Sequence record: PX880103.1
Length of the DNA: 64,000 nt
DNA from: a phage
Reading direction: 5' to 3' (one strand)
The position numbers and the translations under genes were made by a program. Numbering within the stretch: the first letter of the stretch is position 1; every line of letters starts with the position of its first letter. The notes under the pieces were generated by a model, which made no database searches, had not been told where the DNA came from, and saw only the letters and a list, made by a program, of their open reading frames with translations. Positions 2,676 through 61,399 of the stretch are shown here, piece by piece.

Positions 2676-4358
2676 TTAAACCATTACAGTAAATCGACCA
2701 ACTTTCTTCATTTGAAGATGCTGACCGTATGCTTGCGGGTCATGGTCTCTATGCGAAATAACAAAAACGTTAGTATTTTTTAAACTATCTAAAATAGTTG
2801 AAATAGCTTTTACACCTTCAACGTCGGTCGCTGAATCAAAAACTTCGTCAAGAATTAGCGTGTTTATTTTAACACCTGAAACTTTTTCAGCAATATCACG
2901 CCAAGTAAATAAAAGAGCAATATCAATTCGTGCTTTTTCACCTTGACTGAATGAAGCATAACTAAAATCTTCACGACCACGGGATTTAATTGTCTCATTA
3001 AATTCTTCATCTAATGTAAACACATAATCCGCTTCCATTATTTTAAGATAATGGTTAATCTGCTTATTAAATAATGGAATGTACTTTTTAATAATAGCAC
3101 CTTTAATACCAGAATCTTTGAGCATATCAGTCAAAATTCCTCGGTGGTATTTTTCCATTACTAAATTAGTTTTTGTCTTAACAATTTTATCAAGTTCTTC
3201 TTGAAGCAGTGCTATTTCATCAGCATGGTCAATAAACTCAGAAGATGCTTTTTCTATAGCCGCTTTAACTTTTTTAGCTTTATCTACCGTCGTGATTAGA
3301 GATTGCTTTTTATTGCGAATATCATTTGCCAACGACTGTTGGGTTTTAATATTATCTCGGTATTCATCAACAAGAACTTTTAAATTATCACGGTGTGTTG
3401 AAAGCTGTTCAAACGAATACGTACATTCAGAAACTTTATCTTTAATTTTGGAAACAACTTTATCACCGGAACTCAATTGCGACAAACAGGTTGGACATAA
3501 TCCACCTTCGTGATACATATTAATGACTTTATTATACGAGTCAATTTTTGATTTAATTAAAACTGCTTCTTGACCGATTTTATTAAATGCATCAGTCGGG
3601 TCTTCATCTAAAACAATATTAACTAATCTTTCATTAGCTTCTTCTATTTCCGATTTTAGCGTTCTAGCTTCTTTTGCCAAATCATCATACATATTTTGCA
3701 GACGAGTAAGGTTGTCACCAGTTAATTTTTTCTGGCGTTCAACATTATCATTATATATTTTAATTTGTTGGATAATACTATCTTTTTTAACATCAAGCAC
3801 TTGGTTCTGTGAATTTAATTCACGTATTAGTGCTTTGTTAAGCTTATCCATTTCAGCTAATGTTCCTACCTCAAGCAGGTCTTCCACAAGCTTTCTTCGC
3901 ACAGGGGTCGACAAACCCATGAAAGGGGTATACCCTGCTGTACCAAGGACAACAATCTGCTTGAAACTGGCATATGACATTCCGATAAGCTGTTCAAATT
4001 CTGCTTGGAAATCTTTACTGCTGGCAGATTCATTAAGACGTGTACCGTTAACGGTGATTTCGAAAACGTTTGGTTTTTGTCCTCTTTTGATATAGTACTT
4101 TTTCTCATCATATTCCATCCACAGTTCAACTAAAAGTTCTTTCTTATTTGTGCTGTTTATTAATTGACCTTTCTTTACATCACGAAATGGCTTGCCAAAA
4201 AGCCCAAATGTGATGGCTTCTAACATAGTAGACTTACCACCGCCATTTCGTCCAGTAATAAGAGTTTTTTGAACCTTATCTAATTGAATGTCAACTCCAT
4301 TTTGACCAACTGACATTATATTTTTATATTTTACTCTATTAAGTTTAAATGATTTCAT
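2676..4358 (-). CDS. 46: recombination endonuclease subunit gp46 (Rad50/SbcC-like ATPase)
   Basis: 560 aa, Walker A GRNGGGKST near N-terminus, long coiled-coil middle, signature/Walker B near C-terminus (LILDEVFDS). Confidence 0.9.
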   Translation of the reverse strand: MKSFKLNRVKYKNIMSVGQNGVDIQLDKVQKTLITGRNGGGKSTMLEAITFGLFGKPFRDVKKGQLINSTNKKELLVELWMEYDEKKYYIKRGQKPNVFEITVNGTRLNESASSKDFQAEFEQLIGMSYASFKQIVVLGTAGYTPFMGLSTPVRRKLVEDLLEVGTLAEMDKLNKALIRELNSQNQVLDVKKDSIIQQIKIYNDNVERQKKLTGDNLTRLQNMYDDLAKEARTLKSEIEEANERLVNIVLDEDPTDAFNKIGQEAVLIKSKIDSYNKVINMYHEGGLCPTCLSQLSSGDKVVSKIKDKVSECTYSFEQLSTHRDNLKVLVDEYRDNIKTQQSLANDIRNKKQSLITTVDKAKKVKAAIEKASSEFIDHADEIALLQEELDKIVKTKTNLVMEKYHRGILTDMLKDSGIKGAIIKKYIPLFNKQINHYLKIMEADYVFTLDEEFNETIKSRGREDFSYASFSQGEKARIDIALLFTWRDIAEKVSGVKINTLILDEVFDSATDVEGVKAISTILDSLKNTNVFVISHRDHDPQAYGQHLQMKKVGRFTVMV

Positions 4359-4373
4359 TTTGTATCCAATTGT

Positions 4374-5228
4374 TCACAATGAAGAAAATTCTTTAACTAA
4401 AGCCTGTAATGAAGCCTCTATTGGATATCCATTCTTAACTAACATTTTTCTAAACATCACATGTTTAGGACGATTATATGATATCCACAATTCATACAAT
4501 TTATCTTTATTATCCCAATGATAGCCTTTTCGTCGAGACGCTATATGAGCTTTTCTAATCTCCGGATTTTTCCAACTAGCAGCTACTGAATTTGATATAG
4601 CTATTTTATATTCAGGTTTTGATAAAGCAGCACGAACAGCCTTTTGGTGTTTAATTTTATTTTCTTCGTTATTAAACCATTCCCTTGAAGCCATTGAAAT
4701 TTTTTGTTTTGTTTTAAAATTATTTAATCTTTCTTTGTTATCTTTCCTATTTTTTGCTACTGAAAAATATTTTAATGCCCTTTCTCTAGCAGCATTTCTA
4801 TTTTGTGGATTTGAATAATACTGTTGAAGCCTTTTTGATATTGTGTCACTTACATCCTGTCTTATAAAACTATATTCAGCAGCTATTAAATCAACTTCGG
4901 CTAAAGATAAATTTTTATATGTTTTTCCTGACATCATTCTATTTAAAGCATTTAGCATTTTTCCATTTTTACCTTTTGCTAATAAGAAATGTGCTTTGAA
5001 ATGATTAAAATGACTTAAATTAACTAAATTCCATGTAGATTTTAAATATTCAGGAAATATTGATTTAGGAAGCACGTGGTGTGCTTCCGTTTTACCTGGA
5101 GTTTTAACAGTTGAATTCATAGAAATAAAATTAATGTAAGACTTGGCGTCTTCTTCACTCAACGCTAATTTTTCAACTAATTCCTTTATTAAAAATTCAT
5201 CATTAATATCAAGTTTAAAATTCTTCAC
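4374..5228 (-). CDS. free-standing HNH homing endonuclease (mob-like)
   Basis: 284 aa; HNH motif EAHHVLPKS...NLVNL...NHFKAH; basic C-terminal region; GTG start at 5228 with AAGGAA SD; sits between 46 and 47. Confidence 0.7.
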   Translation of the reverse strand: MKNFKLDINDEFLIKELVEKLALSEEDAKSYINFISMNSTVKTPGKTEAHHVLPKSIFPEYLKSTWNLVNLSHFNHFKAHFLLAKGKNGKMLNALNRMMSGKTYKNLSLAEVDLIAAEYSFIRQDVSDTISKRLQQYYSNPQNRNAARERALKYFSVAKNRKDNKERLNNFKTKQKISMASREWFNNEENKIKHQKAVRAALSKPEYKIAISNSVAASWKNPEIRKAHIASRRKGYHWDNKDKLYELWISYNRPKHVMFRKMLVKNGYPIEASLQALVKEFSSL

Positions 5229-16780: not shown

Positions 16781-17703
16781 TTCAATACCTCAATAGCATT
16801 ACGTAAACCATTTGCTTTGGCGGTTAAAGCCTTGAGAACTTTAGTATGCTCTTCAATTTGTTTTTCAACTTCAACCAAACGAGCATTGAGATATTCGCGT
16901 TCTTCTTTCATAGTATCATTCCCATGATTGGATTTTGGCGTAGGTTTAAATTCACTAGGGTCCTTTAACTTAATAACAAATTTAGTTTCAAACAGTGAAA
17001 GACCATAATTCGTATTATCATCAAAGGATTTGACTACATCCATATCAGATAATAACACGCGCAAATTATAAGCCAAAGAACTAATAGTTTCATTGTGTTT
17101 ATTAGCTTCGCGGGGTTTCATATACGGAAGATTTTTATATATCTCGTGCGGAGCGCAAATTATAATTGACAATTCAAATTGCCCATTCTGGGACGATGGA
17201 GTGAATTTAGCTGTAACCCAGTCTTTTACATTCACATTAATAGTACGGTTATCACCATGACAAAACAGTCTACGAGAATGCTTAAAAAGCATATTCACGT
17301 TATTATTGAATTCGTGTGAAAATTCACTAGCAAATTTTTCTTTACTATCTTTAGAAAACCATTCTTCTAAATAAGTTCTTTTCACGTCGTTAATAATATT
17401 AAATGTAACAACACTAGCATTTGATACATTAGTCTCAATGTAGCTTGGATACATAAATTTTTTAACATTATTAACAGCTATCACAGAAGATAGTAATCGG
17501 GAACGTTTGAACCACTCGAGCAAAGAACCAAGAGAATGTGAATACGCATTTTGTGTATCTTTACAAATATGGTTTTCCCATCCAATATAGTCTAAAAAAT
17601 CACGAAGAATATTATTGATTACTGCTCTGTGTCCTATCTGATAATTACGATGTTTAGTAATAAGACTGTCAAAATAATCAATATAATGTTTACGAGTTTT
17701 CAT
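16777..17703 (-). CDS. hypothetical protein with C-terminal coiled coil (paralog 1)
   Basis: 308 aa, C-terminal heptad-like segment ...[31 protein letters not shown]. Confidence 0.5.
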   Translation of the reverse strand: MKTRKHYIDYFDSLITKHRNYQIGHRAVINNILRDFLDYIGWENHICKDTQNAYSHSLGSLLEWFKRSRLLSSVIAVNNVKKFMYPSYIETNVSNASVVTFNIINDVKRTYLEEWFSKDSKEKFASEFSHEFNNNVNMLFKHSRRLFCHGDNRTINVNVKDWVTAKFTPSSQNGQFELSIIICAPHEIYKNLPYMKPREANKHNETISSLAYNLRVLLSDMDVVKSFDDNTNYGLSLFETKFVIKLKDPSEFKPTPKSNHGNDTMKEEREYLNARLVEVEKQIEEHTKVLKALTAKANGLRNAIEVLK

Positions 17704-31372: not shown

Positions 31373-31550
31373 CTAAACGAATGGGTTCATGAATGCCATA
31401 TCCCTGAACAGAAATTTCTGTTGTAGGATAAATTCCATCAATATCACCCATATTCCACGCTTCATTAAATTGCTGTTCGCCTGAATTACTAAACCACTCG
31501 GCGAAAGCATTTAGCACATCTTCAGAACCTTCAATAATTATCTTTGCCAT
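31329..31550 (-). CDS. hypothetical protein (vs.x-like)
   Basis: 73 aa acidic ORF. Confidence 0.35.
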   Translation of the reverse strand: MAKIIIEGSEDVLNAFAEWFSNSGEQQFNEAWNMGDIDGIYPTTEISVQGYGIHEPIRLVEYDLCTGEEVKYD

Positions 31551-31912
31551 TACAAACTCTCGGTAAAGGTACGAGCGATAACGTCGCGCTGCTGTTCCGG
31601 AGTCAGAGAGTTAAAGCGAACTGCATAACCGGATACACGGATGGTCAGCTGCGGATATTTTTCCGGATGCTTAACTGCATCTTCCAGAGTTTCACGACGC
31701 AGAACGTTAACGTTCAGGTGTTGACCACCTTCAATTTTAACTGTAGGTTGTGTTTCAATTTCAATTTCACGGGCATGCAAACCATAGAAAATTTCTGGGT
31801 CTACAAAAGAGTCCTCTTTAAAGGTTTTAGAAACAATAATTCGCGCTTGAATACCATCTTCAAAATAAATAGTACCTTTATGCGTGCCTTCAAGAATTTG
31901 ATATGCTTTCAT
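31550..31912 (-). CDS. autonomous glycyl radical cofactor GrcA/YfiD-like protein
   Basis: 120 aa; C-terminal ~60 aa [61 protein letters not shown] with glycyl radical motif RVSGYA, matching recalled E. coli GrcA C-terminus. Confidence 0.75.
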
Positions 31913-31918
31913 ATAACC

Positions 31919-32248
31919 TCAATTAGAAAATAAATTTATCCAAGATTGTTCTTTAATTAAAAATGGCTCAGAATCATATGCCATTAAACTTTGGGTGATT
32001 AGTCCTTTAAAAGGCCCATCAATAAATTCCATGGTAAAATATGGAATTTTATTCATTAACTTTGCATTAGGAGCAGTACACAAAACTCTACATCCTTTGA
32101 ATACACCTTTTTGTAATTTGTATTGCTTAGGATAAAATTCGCTCAAGACGTTGTTATTTGCCAAAATTTCAAAATGATTCACCAATTTATTTTTAATAGT
32201 TTTTGGCGAAAAATAAAGATATTCGAAAAGTTGTGTGTCTGTCATCAT
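31919..32248 (-). CDS. hypothetical protein
   Basis: 109 aa ORF. Confidence 0.4.
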   Translation of the reverse strand: MMTDTQLFEYLYFSPKTIKNKLVNHFEILANNNVLSEFYPKQYKLQKGVFKGCRVLCTAPNAKLMNKIPYFTMEFIDGPFKGLITQSLMAYDSEPFLIKEQSWINLFSN

Positions 32249-32832
32249 TGCATTCCAATTACGAAAAACTGTGGACGAGTAATACCATCAATGCAACATT
32301 TACTGTTGCAGCAGTGTTGTACAGTTTCAATATGAATATCGTAAATTTTATCCATATCAGGAGATTTAACAGGCTCATCGATTATATACAAAATCCGCGA
32401 AAGCGATAAACCTCTGAACTTGCTACCTCTATTACCAACAAAACTACGGACAGAATCAGTAAATAAACGGAATCGAATATCATCGCTAGAATAACGAGAA
32501 AATTCTTTTTTAATGTTGCCAGCAGAAATTTTAGCATAAGCTGAAGTATTAGAAAGAACAATAACTGTTCCGCCGTCATACAGCCAATTAGCAGCGAAGT
32601 TAGTCACAGCAGTTGATTTACCAGATTGACGTCCACCATCTAGTCGAAGTGTGCAATACTGCTTAAGTAAGTCTTCAAATGGCGGGATATAATCATTTTT
32701 ACAAATTTCTTCTACTCTAGCATCAGAATGGTGTGTAAAAGCATTCATCAGGGATAGATAAGGACCAGTTAAAAATGTTCTCATTTTGTTCTCTCTAAAT
32801 TTGGGCCATTCCGTGGCGCATGAATTGTCCAT
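32245..32832 (-). CDS. small P-loop NTPase
   Basis: Walker A GGRQSGKST, Walker B-like ILYIIDE; start uncertain (internal ATG MRTFLTG possible). Confidence 0.45.
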   Translation of the reverse strand: MDNSCATEWPKFRENKMRTFLTGPYLSLMNAFTHHSDARVEEICKNDYIPPFEDLLKQYCTLRLDGGRQSGKSTAVTNFAANWLYDGGTVIVLSNTSAYAKISAGNIKKEFSRYSSDDIRFRLFTDSVRSFVGNRGSKFRGLSLSRILYIIDEPVKSPDMDKIYDIHIETVQHCCNSKCCIDGITRPQFFVIGMQ

Positions 32833-33017
32833 TTCTGTATTTACCCATTACCGCACTTGGGCTCGACCTTATTACAGGTTGGCGGGAATCCCTCACAGAA
32901 TCATGAGGTCCAGCTTGTTCCCATGTTATTTGAATGTAAATATTTTTGCCTTAATACTTATACCAGTGTGGCTTCATTAAAATTTTTTCATCGAGTCATT
33001 TTACCTCTCCAAGTAAT

Positions 33018-33053
33018 TATGAATATACTATCACAATTTTAGGAGAAAGTAAA
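33018..33053 (-). promoter_or_regulatory. T4-type early promoter candidate
   Basis: Minus strand GTTTAC-N18-TAGTATAT; near-identical copy at 34362-34397. Confidence 0.4.
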
Positions 33054-33056
33054 CTG

Positions 33057-33359
33057 TTATTTACCTTTAATTACTTTAGCTGCTTCGATAGCCGCTTGCT
33101 GAAGGTCATCCATAGACATACCGAATTTAGAAGCAAAGTTATCAATTTTCTTTTCGACAGCATTCAAAGGCTTGGCCTGTTTACCTTCATTAGCGCCAGG
33201 AAGAGCGAGAATACGCTCTTTGTCAATATAAAGGCTTACAAGTTTCTTACGGTCTTTATCGGACAAATCATGAAATGAATGGGCCTTTTTATTTATAGCG
33301 GCTTCTAATTTACCTGCACTCACTCGCGCTTCAGTAATAAATTCTTGATATGTTTTCAT
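33057..33359 (-). CDS. ipII: internal protein II-like (capsid-targeted)
   Basis: 100 aa, N-terminal capsid targeting sequence MKTYQEFITE with ITE protease site. Confidence 0.6.
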   Translation of the reverse strand: MKTYQEFITEARVSAGKLEAAINKKAHSFHDLSDKDRKKLVSLYIDKERILALPGANEGKQAKPLNAVEKKIDNFASKFGMSMDDLQQAAIEAAKVIKGK

Positions 33360-33400
33360 ATGTTTCCTTTAAATGTAAATAGGCCTAAGTATCGGCCTTA

Positions 33401-33979
33401 TTAATTACCACGGGCTGCATTAGCAACGGCATAAGCGTACTGAACATTAGCGTCCTTAAACGTACCTTTAGAGGTATCTATTTCTGCCTTAAAGCCGCCT
33501 TTAGCCATAACATCGGCAAATTCTTTACGGAAAGCCATTGCATCAAGACCTTTCCATGATGATTTGTGCTTGGCGAATTCAAGACCAGCGTAGTTGACAG
33601 CCTTAGCTAATTTATTATCAATGACCCATTTACCGGCTTTAGGCACAAACTTCGGACCTTTTTGTTTAGAGAACAGTTTTAAATTCCAGCGACGAAGATC
33701 ACTGTCGGCTTTAACAAAAGCTGCGTCTAAGTTACTAGCAACAACATCTTCAATATGAGCAAATTTAAGTCCGTCAACTTCAATATTTAAATCGGTACGC
33801 CAGCGAAGTCCTTCCCAAGCGAAAGCTTTAAAATCGGAAGCTTTTGTAGCTAAGTATCGTTCAATAGGGGCTGTTTTAGGGTCAAAGCCGTTTCCACCAC
33901 GATAGTTCCACTCATCTTTATTAATGCCTTTGGCCTTTACTACAGAAGCTTCAGCGATAAATTCTTTATACGTTTTCAT
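33401..33979 (-). CDS. ipIII: internal protein III-like (capsid-targeted)
   Basis: 192 aa, N-terminal MKTYKEFIAE CTS. Confidence 0.6.
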   Translation of the reverse strand: MKTYKEFIAEASVVKAKGINKDEWNYRGGNGFDPKTAPIERYLATKASDFKAFAWEGLRWRTDLNIEVDGLKFAHIEDVVASNLDAAFVKADSDLRRWNLKLFSKQKGPKFVPKAGKWVIDNKLAKAVNYAGLEFAKHKSSWKGLDAMAFRKEFADVMAKGGFKAEIDTSKGTFKDANVQYAYAVANAARGN

Positions 33980-33995: not shown

Positions 33996-34313
33996 TTATT
34001 CTTTAGGGAAGTTTTTAGAATATGCATCATAAAGCTTATTTCCAATACGGCGGAAAACTCTAGCCGCAAAACGATTTTCTGGGTTTTTAATCATGATTTG
34101 CATCATATAAGTACCCGCGTCAGAAAGAGCTTCTTCATAGTACCCGTTAATTTCTTTAAGAGTCCTACGTTTACCACCAGGACCATCAACAGTGATTTTC
34201 CATTTACCCGTAGAAGTGCGACTTGGCGGCTCAACTTGTTCAATCCAGATATAACCGCCTTCTACACGTTGTCCTGCAGCAGATTCTGCAATAAATTCTT
34301 GATATGTTTTCAT
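33996..34313 (-). CDS. additional CTS-bearing internal-protein candidate
   Basis: 105 aa, N-terminal MKTYQEFIAE CTS; lies between e and ipIII. Confidence 0.5.
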   Translation of the reverse strand: MKTYQEFIAESAAGQRVEGGYIWIEQVEPPSRTSTGKWKITVDGPGGKRRTLKEINGYYEEALSDAGTYMMQIMIKNPENRFAARVFRRIGNKLYDAYSKNFPKE

Positions 34314-34401: not shown

Positions 34402-35370
<969 letters not shown>

Positions 35371-37944: not shown

Positions 37945-38100
37945 AGTTTTGTGAAAAATTTTTAGGGAATTCTAGGGGCAGGGAGGGGCAATTAAAAGAT
38001 AGGATAATATATTATAAAGGGTATAAACTAAATGATGCCTAGAGAGGTCTGGAAAGGCCTAGATACCAAAAATCCCTATCATTTAGATAGGGATTTAAAA

Positions 38101-38664
38101 TTATTTACCTAGTTTAGTTATTATAGCTTCGGCAGCAGCTTTTAGCTTAGATGCAGTGTTAATACGATTTTTAATTTCAGTATAAGCATCGCCAAGAACA
38201 TCAAGGCTATCAGAATAAACACTTACACTATTGCGTTCGCTATTTGAAATAGAACCTTTAGTTTTACGATCAAAATCAGTGTACACATCTTGAAGATCGC
38301 GGGCTGCCTTCTTTGCATCATCTAACGCATCAAGAGCTTTATTCAAAGCATTGACATATTTTTTAGTATCAAACATATTCTTAGAAATTTTGACAGGTGC
38401 GCGTTCAGGAGTAGCTAAGGCAGATTTAGGAACCTGAGCGCCTGATGCTAATTTCTTAGAAATTTTGAAAAATGCTTTATTGAATTTATTTTCTTGACTC
38501 ATCGTAAAAGAACTATTATCAATGTTATACATTTCAATAGCTTTAGCTTTCCACTTAAGAAAATCGCCACGGTCTTTTGGGTCCAATTGGAAGAATACTT
38601 TAGTAAGATCTGCTTCAGATGGTAATTTTGCTGCTTCGGTTAAAAATTCGGCATAGGTTTTCAT
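38101..38664 (-). CDS. CTS-bearing protein (e.8-like), possible internal protein
   Basis: 187 aa, N-terminus MKTYAEFLTEAAKL resembles capsid targeting sequence. Confidence 0.45.
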   Translation of the reverse strand: MKTYAEFLTEAAKLPSEADLTKVFFQLDPKDRGDFLKWKAKAIEMYNIDNSSFTMSQENKFNKAFFKISKKLASGAQVPKSALATPERAPVKISKNMFDTKKYVNALNKALDALDDAKKAARDLQDVYTDFDRKTKGSISNSERNSVSVYSDSLDVLGDAYTEIKNRINTASKLKAAAEAIITKLGK

Positions 38665-38751
38665 TTAAAATCCTTGAAATAATTTATCGGTTGGTTATTA
38701 ATTATTTATTACTTTGTTATTATCCGTAACAGCATTCTCTATGTGATTCAA

Positions 38752-39098: not shown

Positions 39099-39174
39099 TG
39101 GTCGAGGCAGTAGGGATCGAACCTACGACCTAGGACTTAGAAGGTCCTTGCTCTTCCTTCTGAGCTATGCCTCG
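39099..39174 (-). tRNA. tRNA-Arg: tRNA-Arg (anticodon TCT)
   Basis: Hand-folded cloverleaf: acceptor CGAGGCA/TGCCTCG, anticodon loop CTTCTAA, T-arm GTAGG-TTCGATC-CCTAC, encoded CCA. Confidence 0.8.
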
Positions 39175-39178
39175 GATT

Positions 39179-39252
39179 TGGCGGACGTGATAGGATTCGA
39201 ACCTATAACCAATCGCTTAACAGGCGATCGCTCTGCCATTGAGCTACACATC
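39179..39252 (-). tRNA. tRNA-Asn: tRNA-Asn (anticodon GTT)
   Basis: Hand-folded: acceptor GGATGTG/CACGTCC, anticodon stem ATCGC/GCGAT with loop CTGTTAA, T-loop TTCGAAT, encoded CCA. Confidence 0.7.
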
Positions 39253-39257
39253 CAAAT

Positions 39258-39344
39258 TGGTGGGGAGTGATGGAGTCGAACCACCCGAGTCGCAATGACA
39301 ATGGATTTACAGTCCACACCGCTACCTCTACGGGATAACTCCCC
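39258..39344 (-). tRNA. tRNA-Tyr: tRNA-Tyr (anticodon GTA), long variable arm
   Basis: Hand-folded: acceptor GGGGAGT/ACTCCCC, anticodon loop CTGTAAA, long variable arm, T-loop TTCGACT, encoded CCA. Confidence 0.65.
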
Positions 39345-39353
39345 AAATTAATT

Positions 39354-39428
39354 TGGTGGCCCTGGGTGGAATTGAACCACCATCTGGCGATTATGAGTCG
39401 CTTGCTTGAACCTTCCAGCTACAGGGCC
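39354..39428 (-). tRNA. tRNA-Met/Ile: tRNA with CAT anticodon (Met or lysidine-modified Ile)
   Basis: Hand-folded: acceptor GGCCCTG/CAGGGCC, anticodon loop CTCATAA, T-arm GGTGG-TTCAATT-CCACC, encoded CCA. Confidence 0.7.
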
Positions 39429-39436
39429 AAATTTTC

Positions 39437-39919
39437 TTATTTTATGTAATATTTATTTAAAAACTTTCTAGCTTGAGTATGGCTAACATTTATAGCGTTT
39501 GCATAATTTTTAATAAAACCTCGTTCATCCATATTAAAATTTTCTAATATTTTTAATCGTCTAGTTATCTCATCTTGACTTAAGGTACTTGCATTATTTT
39601 TAGAAATTTTTTCTAAGGACTGTGCCGAGTGTTTTCGACCATTAAAATTAAAATTTTTAGATTTTGGAGGAAATCTAGCATTTAATCTCGCATCTTTTGT
39701 ATTTTGATTATTAGTTGCGCAATATATGTTATTTAATGAATATGGTCCTTTATCGCCGAAACGGCACATGCAGTATTCATGACCCTTTCTTCCACGCTTA
39801 TCATAATTTCCCGTTGATTTCCACCAATGCAACCATTCATCAAAAGTTAAATTCCATTCAATGTTTCTACGTATAGCAGAATTCCGCTGAGAAATATATT
39901 TTGCATAATCTTCTTTCAT
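39437..39919 (-). CDS. endonuclease-like protein inside the tRNA cluster (degenerate HNH_3-like, with C-terminal DNA-binding-like region)
   Basis: 160 aa from ATG; segment GHEYCMCRFGDKGPYSLNNIYCATNNQN loosely resembles HNH_3 core (H..DGN..NN...NL..T..N); basic C-terminus. Confidence 0.4.
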   Translation of the reverse strand: MKEDYAKYISQRNSAIRRNIEWNLTFDEWLHWWKSTGNYDKRGRKGHEYCMCRFGDKGPYSLNNIYCATNNQNTKDARLNARFPPKSKNFNFNGRKHSAQSLEKISKNNASTLSQDEITRRLKILENFNMDERGFIKNYANAINVSHTQARKFLNKYYIK

Positions 39920-39966
39920 CACAAATTTCTCTACTTATTCAATACACTGAGCTAAATCAGCAAAAC

Positions 39967-40056
39967 TGGCGGAGGCGATAGGATTTGAACCTATGAGTCG
40001 CCGGAGCGACTGCCGGTTTTCAAGACCGGTGCATTAAACCACTCTGCCACGCCTCC
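39967..40056 (-). tRNA. tRNA-Ser: tRNA-Ser (anticodon TGA), long variable arm
   Basis: Hand-folded: acceptor GGAGGCG/CGCCTCC, anticodon loop CTTGAAA, long variable arm, T-loop TTCAAAT, encoded CCA. Confidence 0.8.
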
Positions 40057-40058
40057 AG

Positions 40059-40132
40059 TCTCCGTGGCAGGATTTGAACCTACGACATTCTGCTCCCAAA
40101 GCAGACGCTCTACCAAACTGAGCTACACGGAG
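40059..40132 (-). tRNA. tRNA-Pro: tRNA-Pro (anticodon TGG)
   Basis: Hand-folded: acceptor CTCCGTG/CACGGAG, anticodon loop TTTGGGA, T-loop TTCAAAT; CCA not encoded; 2 nt from tRNA-Ser. Confidence 0.8.
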
Positions 40133-40142
40133 TAAATTAAAT

Positions 40143-40216
<74 letters not shown>

Positions 40217-40221
40217 AAATT

Positions 40222-40309
40222 TGGTGCGAGAAGTGGGACTCGAACCCACAAGGAAATCATTCCGCAGCATTTTAAGTGCTGTGCCTTTACCAATTTGACC
40301 ATTCTCGCG
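40222..40309 (-). tRNA. tRNA-Leu: tRNA-Leu (anticodon TAA), long variable arm
   Basis: Hand-folded: acceptor GCGAGAA/TTCTCGC, anticodon stem CAGCA/TGCTG loop CTTAAAA, long variable arm, T-arm GTGGG-TTCGAGT-CCCAC, encoded CCA. Confidence 0.8.

Positions 40310-58359: not shown

Positions 58360-61399
<3,040 letters not shown>

Follow-up and report, generated by a model that had tools for sequence, protein, structure and literature searches.

The stretch of DNA analysed here (hereafter the window) comprises 64,000 nucleotides (nt) of a phage genome of about 165 kb (PX880103.1), of which these 64 kb are visible. By megablast the region belongs to Tequatrovirus (94-97% identity). All genes around the locus of interest are on the minus strand, in an order that agrees with the T4 map, where vs.6, vs.7, vs.8, denV and ipII follow each other. 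A preliminary description of the window had noted, at the place where denV (the endonuclease V gene) is expected beside ipII, an open reading frame (ORF) of about 190 amino acids (aa) with P-loop motifs, followed by a gap of about 220 base pairs (bp). It is very probable, in our analysis, that the locus keeps the normal vs.8-denV-ipII order, with denV knocked out in place and a conserved RNA as the leader of vs.8.

In-place deletion of denV

Between the P-loop ORF and the stop codon of ipII lies a gap of 224 bp (32833-33056), in which the only ORFs are, on the gene strand, one of 33 aa that starts with GTG and, on the plus strand, a pair of 61 and 64 aa. Its size and its want of a larger ORF are as first described, but it is not featureless, as it contains a denV scar and the conserved RNA. 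A tblastn search of the 64 kb with the T4 and W143 DenV sequences returns one C-terminal remnant of 20 aa (32995..32936, DenV residues 118-137; 70% identity, E-value = 7e-5) with one in-frame stop, and no further DenV match. This agrees with the earlier statement that the window has no denV-like translation: an intact ORF of about 138 aa with the N-terminal catalytic region is not found. In an alignment with T4 and W143, ipII is followed by an intergenic stretch, then by ATGACTCG, then by the 3' end of denV. The remnant consists of ATGACTCG fused to the last 62 nt of denV and reads M-T-R-stop (ATG ACT CGA TGA).

An intact allele of the same lineage is found in phage vB_VIPECOOM01 and in a metagenomic T4-like contig (L007). 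Compared with the window, vB_VIPECOOM01 differs at one base in the 57 nt upstream and at a few bases in the downstream flank. The intact denV is 417 nt long and exhibits the hexamer GACTCG twice (nt 3-8 and nt 350-355), whereas the window holds exactly one copy. Since one copy remains of the two, 347 bp were lost between these 6-bp direct repeats. The comparison shows that denV was destroyed in place by this deletion, not replaced. Replication slippage or microhomology recombination would be expected to leave such a repeat-to-repeat loss. Promoter-like hexamers, a ribosome-binding site, the start codon and the last 62 nt of the gene were left behind. The source allele of the remnant is 77-78% identical to that of T4. 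The scar junction is matched without interruption in 17 database records (about 15 phages, PHB12, W143, NHEP29, HX01, SF and SP1 among them), and being common to these records it is an inherited lineage marker rather than an assembly artefact. In T2 and SH7, by contrast, the whole denV cassette is absent; the loss in the window is a recent, precisely definable microhomology deletion with the expression signals kept.

Upstream of the scar, GTTTAC (33054-33049), an 18-nt spacer, TAGTAT (33030-33025), GGAGAGG (33010-33004) and ATG (32999) can be read directly. A T4 early promoter was taken to have a -35 GTTTAC and a TATAAT-like -10 hexamer, 17-18 nt apart, before an early gene. The early-promoter cassette of the preliminary description is upheld as far as the hexamers go, the stretch being that before the intact denV of vB_VIPECOOM01 except for one base. 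Against the assignment, a generic sigma-70 consensus scan did not call GTTTAC/TAGTAT on this strand; the putative promoter status is drawn from homology and from the T4-early form of the -35 hexamer, not from a consensus score. Transcripts from this orphaned site would run through the scar into the RNA leader, and then into vs.8.

W143 carries the same scar, yet it has an intact denV in an extra cassette between ipIII and e, on the e side of its counterpart of a 105-aa internal-protein-like ORF; this cassette is absent from the window. The position of denV varies among T4-like phages, as the gene adjoins e in SP18 and Kc304 and lies directly before the vs.8 leader in T4 and the Karam-like phages. 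With 64 kb of about 165 kb visible, a denV copy may thus be present in the remainder, which would leave the phage proficient in ultraviolet (UV) repair. However, all these positions in the relatives examined (T4, W143, SP18, Kc304, Karam-like phages) fall within the e-to-vs.8 interval, and the whole of this interval is inside the window and holds no denV. The T2 record has no denV in the same interval, and SH7 (a Shigella phage) has no DenV-like sequence in its complete genome of 164,870 bp. Among Escherichia and Shigella phage records, those with Vs.8 (551 and 79) outnumber those with DenV (479 and 65). Given the denV-free interval and the denV-free SH7 genome, we are confident that the phage lacks a functional DenV, and an intact copy elsewhere in its genome is unlikely.

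A phage of this kind would make no endonuclease V, and its UV sensitivity would be about that of T4 denV mutants or of T2. Its UV survival would lean on host excision repair, photoreactivation and phage recombination repair. T2 was reportedly found by Streisinger and Harm to be more UV-sensitive than T4, lacking v-gene function, and loss of denV in T-even phages is known as a classical natural polymorphism.

The vs.8 gene and its product

The P-loop ORF had been taken to occupy the place of denV. It is instead vs.8, which stands beside denV in T4 too. The 195-aa ORF starts with ATG and contains LDGGRQSGKST and ILYIIDE, the two motifs already pointed out. It is 87% identical to T4 Vs.8 over 195 aa (tblastn) and matches phrog_1488 in PHROGs (E-value = 2e-78, profile positions 2-177 of 177). 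The gene lies, as in T4, downstream of the internal-protein (IP)/denV region and upstream of vs.7 and vs.6 (GrcA). The possibility that the ORF is one of the standard vs genes of T4, which the preliminary description itself had raised together with a homology search, is thus borne out by this identity and by the gene order. A novel gene that replaced denV would be in keeping with an ORF that abuts the expected denV position and has no Pfam or NCBIfam family, but it is refuted by the likeness to T4 Vs.8, by the presence of vs.8 and denV side by side in T4, and by the start and end of denV that survive next to vs.8; practically no probability remains for it. As originally worded, the observation is an ordinary one, vs.8 being a standard T4 gene and natural loss of denV being known from the UV work on T2 and T4.

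Vs.8 homologues are present in 1010 phage records. All of 18 aligned homologues (41-91% identity) start at M(R/K/N)(T)FLT, corresponding to Met17 of the ORF. Because of this agreement, the start of vs.8 is, on comparative grounds, the ATG at 32784, and the predicted protein has 179 aa. The untranslated interval is accordingly 272 bp long (32785-33056) rather than the 220 bp or so of the original description, and the first 16 codons of the ORF are probably not translated. Invariant across the 18 sequences are DGGRQSGK (the next residue being S or T), IIDEP (within L..IIDEP), R113 and R124-G125; both motifs are therefore invariant or nearly so in the family. T4 Vs.8 (Y06M_BPT4, [quoted passage not shown]) shares with the window protein its neighbours vs.7 and vs.6/GrcA and the Walker A and B motifs. 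It differs in being annotated with 219 aa, that is with 41 extra N-terminal codons lying over the RNA. The matching stretch is in a different frame in the window and hits a stop, and it is likewise interrupted in W143. The T4 reference annotation is probably about 41 codons too long.

The Vs.8 family is small and confined to phages (27 clusters at 90% identity). When 1.84 billion representatives were searched with a profile, only 50 Vs.8 clusters were obtained, all of them small stand-alone proteins, so that remote homology offers no functional lead. No sequence relative was found in Pfam, NCBIfam or PDB. The NCBIfam, PADLOC and PDB searches were uninformative, the best marginal matches being PtuA (PADLOC, E-value = 0.01) and a TraD-like coupling protein (E-value = 0.07). 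The AlphaFold model is a single RecA-like α/β domain (pLDDT 81, pTM 0.82). With this model Foldseek gives weak matches (TM ~0.4-0.5) to domain 1 of helicases (SLFN11, RecD, RadD) and to the packaging ATPases of P74-26 and phi29; the latter have E-values of ~5e-3 and TM 0.45-0.49, and the helicase domains of SLFN11 and RecD are equal or better. By its motifs and predicted fold, Vs.8 is a conserved stand-alone, single-domain ASCE P-loop ATPase with terminase-like Walker motifs.

The likeness to the TerL ATPase consists of Walker A (R-Q-x-G-K-S/T), Walker B (hydrophobic-DE, hhhhDE) and a weak phrog_2 match (E-value = 3e-6). T4 gp17, with the motifs SRQLGKT and MIYIDE, resembles Vs.8 in the same way. 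In contrast to TerL, Vs.8 scores 14.5 bits against Pfam Terminase_6N (cut-off 22), and its 179 aa form a single domain in the model, with no RNase H-like nuclease domain. Membership of Vs.8 in the terminase family was rejected on this score and this domain content.

A conserved RNA upstream of vs.8

The 130 nt from the scar to the vs.8 ATG are GC-rich and near-identical in T4, W143 and the window. A sensitive BLAST search finds this block conserved in 1117 phage records. In other Tevenvirinae genera it is 76-83% identical where the Vs.8 protein is only about 40% identical. A 43-nt core is retained in rV5-like phages (86-95% identity) and a shorter one in Kosakonia phages, Enterobacter phages and one 45-kb coliphage. 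In most records of other genera the block lies in unannotated DNA. Pattern scans gave further copies in IMG/VR and metagenomes, as well as a distinct type in 46-kb phage contigs, some of them from the human gut; the matches to a 14-base pattern in viral contigs were mostly due to chance, and the covariance model found the RNA in 10 of 100 fetched loci. At the most distant Vs.8 loci (L170-L176) the RNA is undetectable, even with filters off.

Scanning 185,579 bacterial and archaeal species genomes with a 23-base core pattern gave no match, nor did BLAST find the block in any of 5,426 complete E. coli genomes; complementarity or similarity to E. coli sequence was likewise not detected. The RNA is restricted to phages; the isolated carriers are phages of Enterobacteriaceae, and the other copies come from metagenomic contigs. 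Rfam 15 gives no match to the block, either at the gathering threshold or at E<=10 over 32795-32928, its only matches in the window being tRNAs. No description of the element turned up in searches of the literature on vs.8, T4 non-coding RNAs and phage RNA motifs. In T4 the RNA is at NC_000866 64,853-64,944 on the minus strand (L001 2846-2937), its first helix directly after the denV stop codon.

The RNA consists of a core of about 95 nt and a 3' motif, and its seven sequence types align well (Table 1 gives the elements in the window). Helix P1 is found as GGGAA/UUCCC, GGGAG/CUCCC, AAAGG/CCUUU, AAAGC/GCUUU, GGGG/CCCC, GAGGG/CCCUC, GAAUG/CAUUC and GAGUG/CACUC, and P2 as GCC/GGU, ACC/GGU, CUGG/CCAG, AGCC/GGCU, GCG/CGU and ACU/AGU. 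P1a also co-varies (CCUCAU/AUGAGG, CCUUAU/AUAAGG, CACAU/AUGUG, GGGU/ACCC). Pa is a near-invariant hairpin, ACCU-GUAAYA-AGGU, with one compensatory change (A-U to G-C) in a tandem copy. The junction of about 20 nt is nearly invariant (CGAGCCNAAGYGCGGUAA). Over 17 sequences, 96% of the cells are paired, and all eight variable pairs of P1 and P2 change on both sides. In paired percentage, number of doubly changed cells and covariation score alike, none of 500 shuffles equals the observed value, and pairing falls to 52-55% when the partners are slid by one column. The covariance model built from the RNA (R1) identifies a single copy in the window (32837-32928, minus strand, 97.5 bits), with none in the tRNA region, and aligned 64 copies (49 distinct) with 94% of the cells paired. 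The RNA is placed on the strand of vs.8 because its G-U pairs fit that strand.

In every type, the tail that directly follows P2 is complementary to the 5' side of the P1 internal loop. About ten versions of this pseudoknot are seen, including CUG/CAG, CCG(A)/(U)CGG, CGC/GCG, CACAC/GUGUG, CCUGA/UCAGG, ACCA/UGGU, CGGA/UCCG, CCAG/CUGG and CUCCGG/CCGGAG. The pseudoknot was tested by script; MAFFT, mixing T4-type and SP18-type copies, set P1 in different columns. Cognate partners give a mean of 4.4 paired units versus 3.2 for non-cognate ones, a value reached in none of 20000 permutations. The 3' motif of T4-like phages, AUGGA..AUGYGCCANGGAAUGGCCC, lies upstream of the vs.8 ATG, 18 nt from it in the window and similarly close in relatives; its small GCCA/UGGC hairpin is predicted, and shows no covariation among nine T4-like leaders. 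The comparative analysis shows the vs.8 leader to be not spacer but a compact RNA, in which the predicted helices P1 (with P1a as its hairpin), P2 and Pa, together with a pseudoknot, surround a nearly invariant junction. In the T2 record (LC348380, L177 5768-6443), the RNA has a mismatch in hairpin Pa (AGGU to AUGU), and vs.8 is split over three frames.

Several points weigh against this structure. Folding of the single sequence gives no signal on either strand (z = +0.9 and +0.4 versus shuffles), and the support for the RNA structure is comparative. As there are about seven sequence types, independent compensatory events are modest in number, and the shuffle controls take no account of relatedness. 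P2 has only 3 bp, as has the pseudoknot in copies of the T4 type; Pa and the junction hardly vary and are hence uninformative on pairing. Alignment by a covariance model also leans towards the structure of the model.

The surroundings of the RNA differ among phage groups. In the Tevenvirinae examined it ends 15-30 nt before the vs.8 start and is followed by the 3' motif. The Karam-like T4-type phages have two tandem copies between denV and vs.8 (L159 8962-9182, L118 5090-5309), the second with an altered junction (CAGCCCGCGGCGGUAA); the compensatory change in Pa is found in the latter locus. In Klebsiella phage pzk-kv19 (Jiaodavirus), an intact copy precedes an inserted IP gene and a chimeric, degenerate copy precedes vs.8, a pair that looks like a cassette insertion by recombination within the element. 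At a further locus (L013) the RNA likewise precedes an internal-protein gene. In Vequintavirus nimi it is located about 560 nt upstream of a tRNA cluster, with a TTGACA/TAAAAT site after it; the proteins flanking it in Vequintavirus have no known function. In coliphage Ivi it follows the terminator of the endolysin gene, between promoter-like sites, with a terminator some 110 nt further on. In the 46-kb phage contigs it shares the strand of the tRNA genes, within or beside which it lies, and is bracketed by an 8-bp outer stem with a compensatory change (GUUGUGAC/GUCACAAC to GUUGUGAA/UUCACAAC). These contigs (L075 8300-9560, minus strand; L024, L030, L054, L141) exhibit a non-coding stretch of about 1.2 kb with tRNA genes, in which the motif (A/C)AGUGCUCUUAUCGUUGUG is repeated before several stem-bracketed units, one of them the RNA; the stretch may be an array of processed small RNAs.

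Table 1. Features of the vs.6-to-e region of the window, with the RNA copies of phage pzk-kv19
Feature	Position	Strand	Basis or remark
vs.6 (GrcA-like glycyl-radical protein)	31550-31912	-	T4 map
vs.7	31919-32248	-	T4 map
P-loop ORF (vs.8 ortholog), mechanical ORF, 195 aa	32245-32832	-	
vs.8 from its predicted start, 179 aa	32245..32784	-	
First 16 codons of the 195-aa ORF	32785..32832	-	Overlap the 3' part of the RNA leader; homologues and PHROG profile begin at Met17
RNA 3' motif	32803..32834	-	Alignment of 9 T4-like leaders
Conserved pseudoknotted RNA core	32835..32928	-	Covariance model R1, covariation
P1	32922-32918 with 32888-32884	-	
P1a	32908-32903 with 32896-32891	-	
P2	32883-32881 with 32845-32843	-	
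Pa	32879-32876 with 32869-32866	-	
Invariant junction	32865-32846	-	
Pseudoknot	32913-32911 with 32837-32835	-	
denV remnant	32930..32999	-	tblastn and alignment to intact alleles
Orphaned denV early-promoter-like site and Shine-Dalgarno sequence	33004..33054	-	Read from sequence; homology
ipII (internal head protein II), upstream neighbour	33057..33359	-	phrog_7857 (E-value = 4.5e-55); T4 synteny
ipIII	33401-33979	-	
Internal-protein-like ORF, 105 aa, MKTYQEFIAE targeting motif	33996-34313	-	phrog_3966; between ipIII and e
e	34402-34896	-	Followed by nudE
pzk-kv19 RNA copies	L023 1468-1576 and 2008-2101		

T4 has no gene at the position of the 105-aa internal-protein-like ORF. SH7 is 87-98% identical over the 64-kb window and shares the junction of the ipIII side with e at 98.9%. 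Homology is broken across the scar, ipII and ipIII (window 32934-33948, about 1 kb; L164 20649-21083), where SH7 carries a different internal-protein gene of 157 aa. This part of the window is a hyperplastic internal-protein region, and one of its boundaries is the RNA. Four other segments of the window (4349-5212, 16918-17214, 38076-38746 and 59065-59781) have no SH7 counterpart in megablast and are probably insertions or variable cassettes. The minus strand of the window also carries two blocks of tRNA genes (39099-40308), eight genes in all (Arg, Asn, Tyr, Met, Ser, Pro, Gly, Leu), which with respect to transcription lie about 6 kb upstream of the RNA; this set is unlike that of T4.

Possible roles of the RNA

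The fold and core of the RNA are kept beside tRNA genes in Vequintavirus and the 46-kb contigs, and alone in Ivi. Because they persist where no vs.8 follows, we infer that the element is most likely an autonomous folded RNA domain, which would bind a small ligand or a factor of the host or the phage. It would additionally serve as the 5' leader of vs.8 in T4-like phages. Against this, a cis-regulatory role could be read from its constant position directly before vs.8 in the Tevenvirinae examined.

A stable RNA processed from longer transcripts could act in trans by binding or decoying a host or phage factor, possibly with an anti-defence or tRNA-related role. We give this reading nearly an even chance. 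It accords with the restriction of the RNA to phages, with its place on the strand of tRNA clusters, within or beside them, in the 46-kb contigs and a Vequintavirus, with the co-varying outer stem that brackets it in the former, and with the promoter-like sites and the terminator around it in Ivi. Its fixed position relative to vs.8 in T4-like phages and the lack of any detected complementarity or similarity to E. coli sequence argue the other way. A riboswitch-like cis-regulator of vs.8, made of a ligand-binding aptamer with the 3' motif as expression platform, is possible but doubtful. In most Tevenvirinae loci examined (a divergent one included) the RNA directly precedes the vs.8 start, in Karam-like phages it stands in tandem before one gene, its pseudoknotted fold and invariant junction are those of a conserved structured aptamer, and its helix order is that of the ZTP aptamer. 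Outside Tevenvirinae, however, it is unlinked to vs.8, being enclosed by the outer stem in tRNA clusters or followed by a promoter-like site, and even within them L013 and the first pzk-kv19 copy have it before an internal-protein gene; a consistent 5' untranslated placement before functionally related genes is thus not seen. Moreover, neither an alternative pairing nor a terminator was found, and the 3' hairpin does not co-vary. A new self-cleaving ribozyme that separates transcripts would suit the polycistronic and tRNA contexts, the few short helices with a pseudoknot and a nearly invariant core, and a crossing-helix order resembling that of HDV-like (hepatitis delta virus-like) ribozymes. 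It is nevertheless quite unlikely, as no Rfam ribozyme model matches, the invariant part falls where HDV-like ribozymes vary (the P4 equivalent), and the equivalent of P3 (P1a), obligatory in that class, is absent from the gut-phage type.

The block might also act as DNA, either as an anchor for recombination where the hyperplastic internal-protein region borders on it or as a protein-binding site. The break of window-SH7 homology at 32934, a few bases from the 5' end of the RNA, the chimeric second copy beside the inserted internal-protein gene of pzk-kv19, and the cassette shuffling known in T4-type phages (the model of promoter-early stem-loop cassettes) are all in line with such an element. 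Compensatory changes, strand-specific G-U pairs and a co-varying pseudoknot are not expected of a duplex DNA site, and the same core occurs in unrelated genomes that have no internal-protein cassettes, which makes this reading very unlikely. Still more improbable is a coding function, as the N-terminal extension of Vs.8 (219 aa in T4) or as a small separate ORF, although in T4 and SH7 the frame is open from a GTG through to vs.8 and the window has its 33-aa GTG ORF. In the window, as in W143, an indel and a stop interrupt this frame, and no frame is common to the types, whose P1 loops differ by 17, 21, 24, 29 or 31 nt. The invariant core has UAA-UAA in one of its frames, substitutions pair up across helices instead of falling at third codon positions, and the block is in unannotated DNA in most other genera. 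Taken together, the DNA-level and coding explanations retain a small share of the probability. The twister, tetraloop receptor, cobalamin, FMN, TPP and ykkC motifs were considered by eye and rejected, since no model matches and the pairings they require are at odds with the covariation. The two GGA motifs of the 3' region, if read as CsrA sites, fit the SP18 type well (AUACAUGGAUGA) but not the T4 type, and this reading was dropped.

The ZTP (pfl) riboswitch and the HDV-like ribozymes are like the phage RNA in topology only, with the helix order a b (hairpin) a' c (hairpin) c' b', which for the phage RNA was obtained from covariation. There is no sequence or model match to either; the conserved nucleotides of the phage RNA are different ones and lie inside the 3' stem, and the gene associations differ. 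T4 encodes other structured RNAs, such as the pseudoknot in the leader of gene 32 mRNA, which is a translational operator. Further examples are RNAC and RNAD, small stable RNAs of unknown role from the tRNA region (according to a 2010 review of T4 post-transcriptional control). These have no sequence relation to the phage RNA, which, unlike them, is shared with groups other than T4.

The denV knockout carried by this phage and some 15 sequenced relatives is clean and datable, and it bears on the UV inactivation of therapeutic and environmental T4-like phages. It is the RNA, however, that could matter: it outdoes the neighbouring proteins in conservation, crosses the boundaries of phage families and is found near tRNA genes in two other phage groups. 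According to the 2010 review, T4 had yielded no riboswitch or trans-acting regulatory RNA with a functional characterisation. We tentatively suggest that the element may represent a new functional RNA class of virulent enterobacterial phages (an aptamer, ribozyme, decoy or anti-defence RNA), unannotated in T4 under an over-extended vs.8 and horizontally shared by Tevenvirinae, Vequintavirus, a T1-sized coliphage and the phages of the tRNA-rich 46-kb contigs. As it is present in T4, conserved, co-varying and widespread, the RNA is directly testable in the best-developed phage system.

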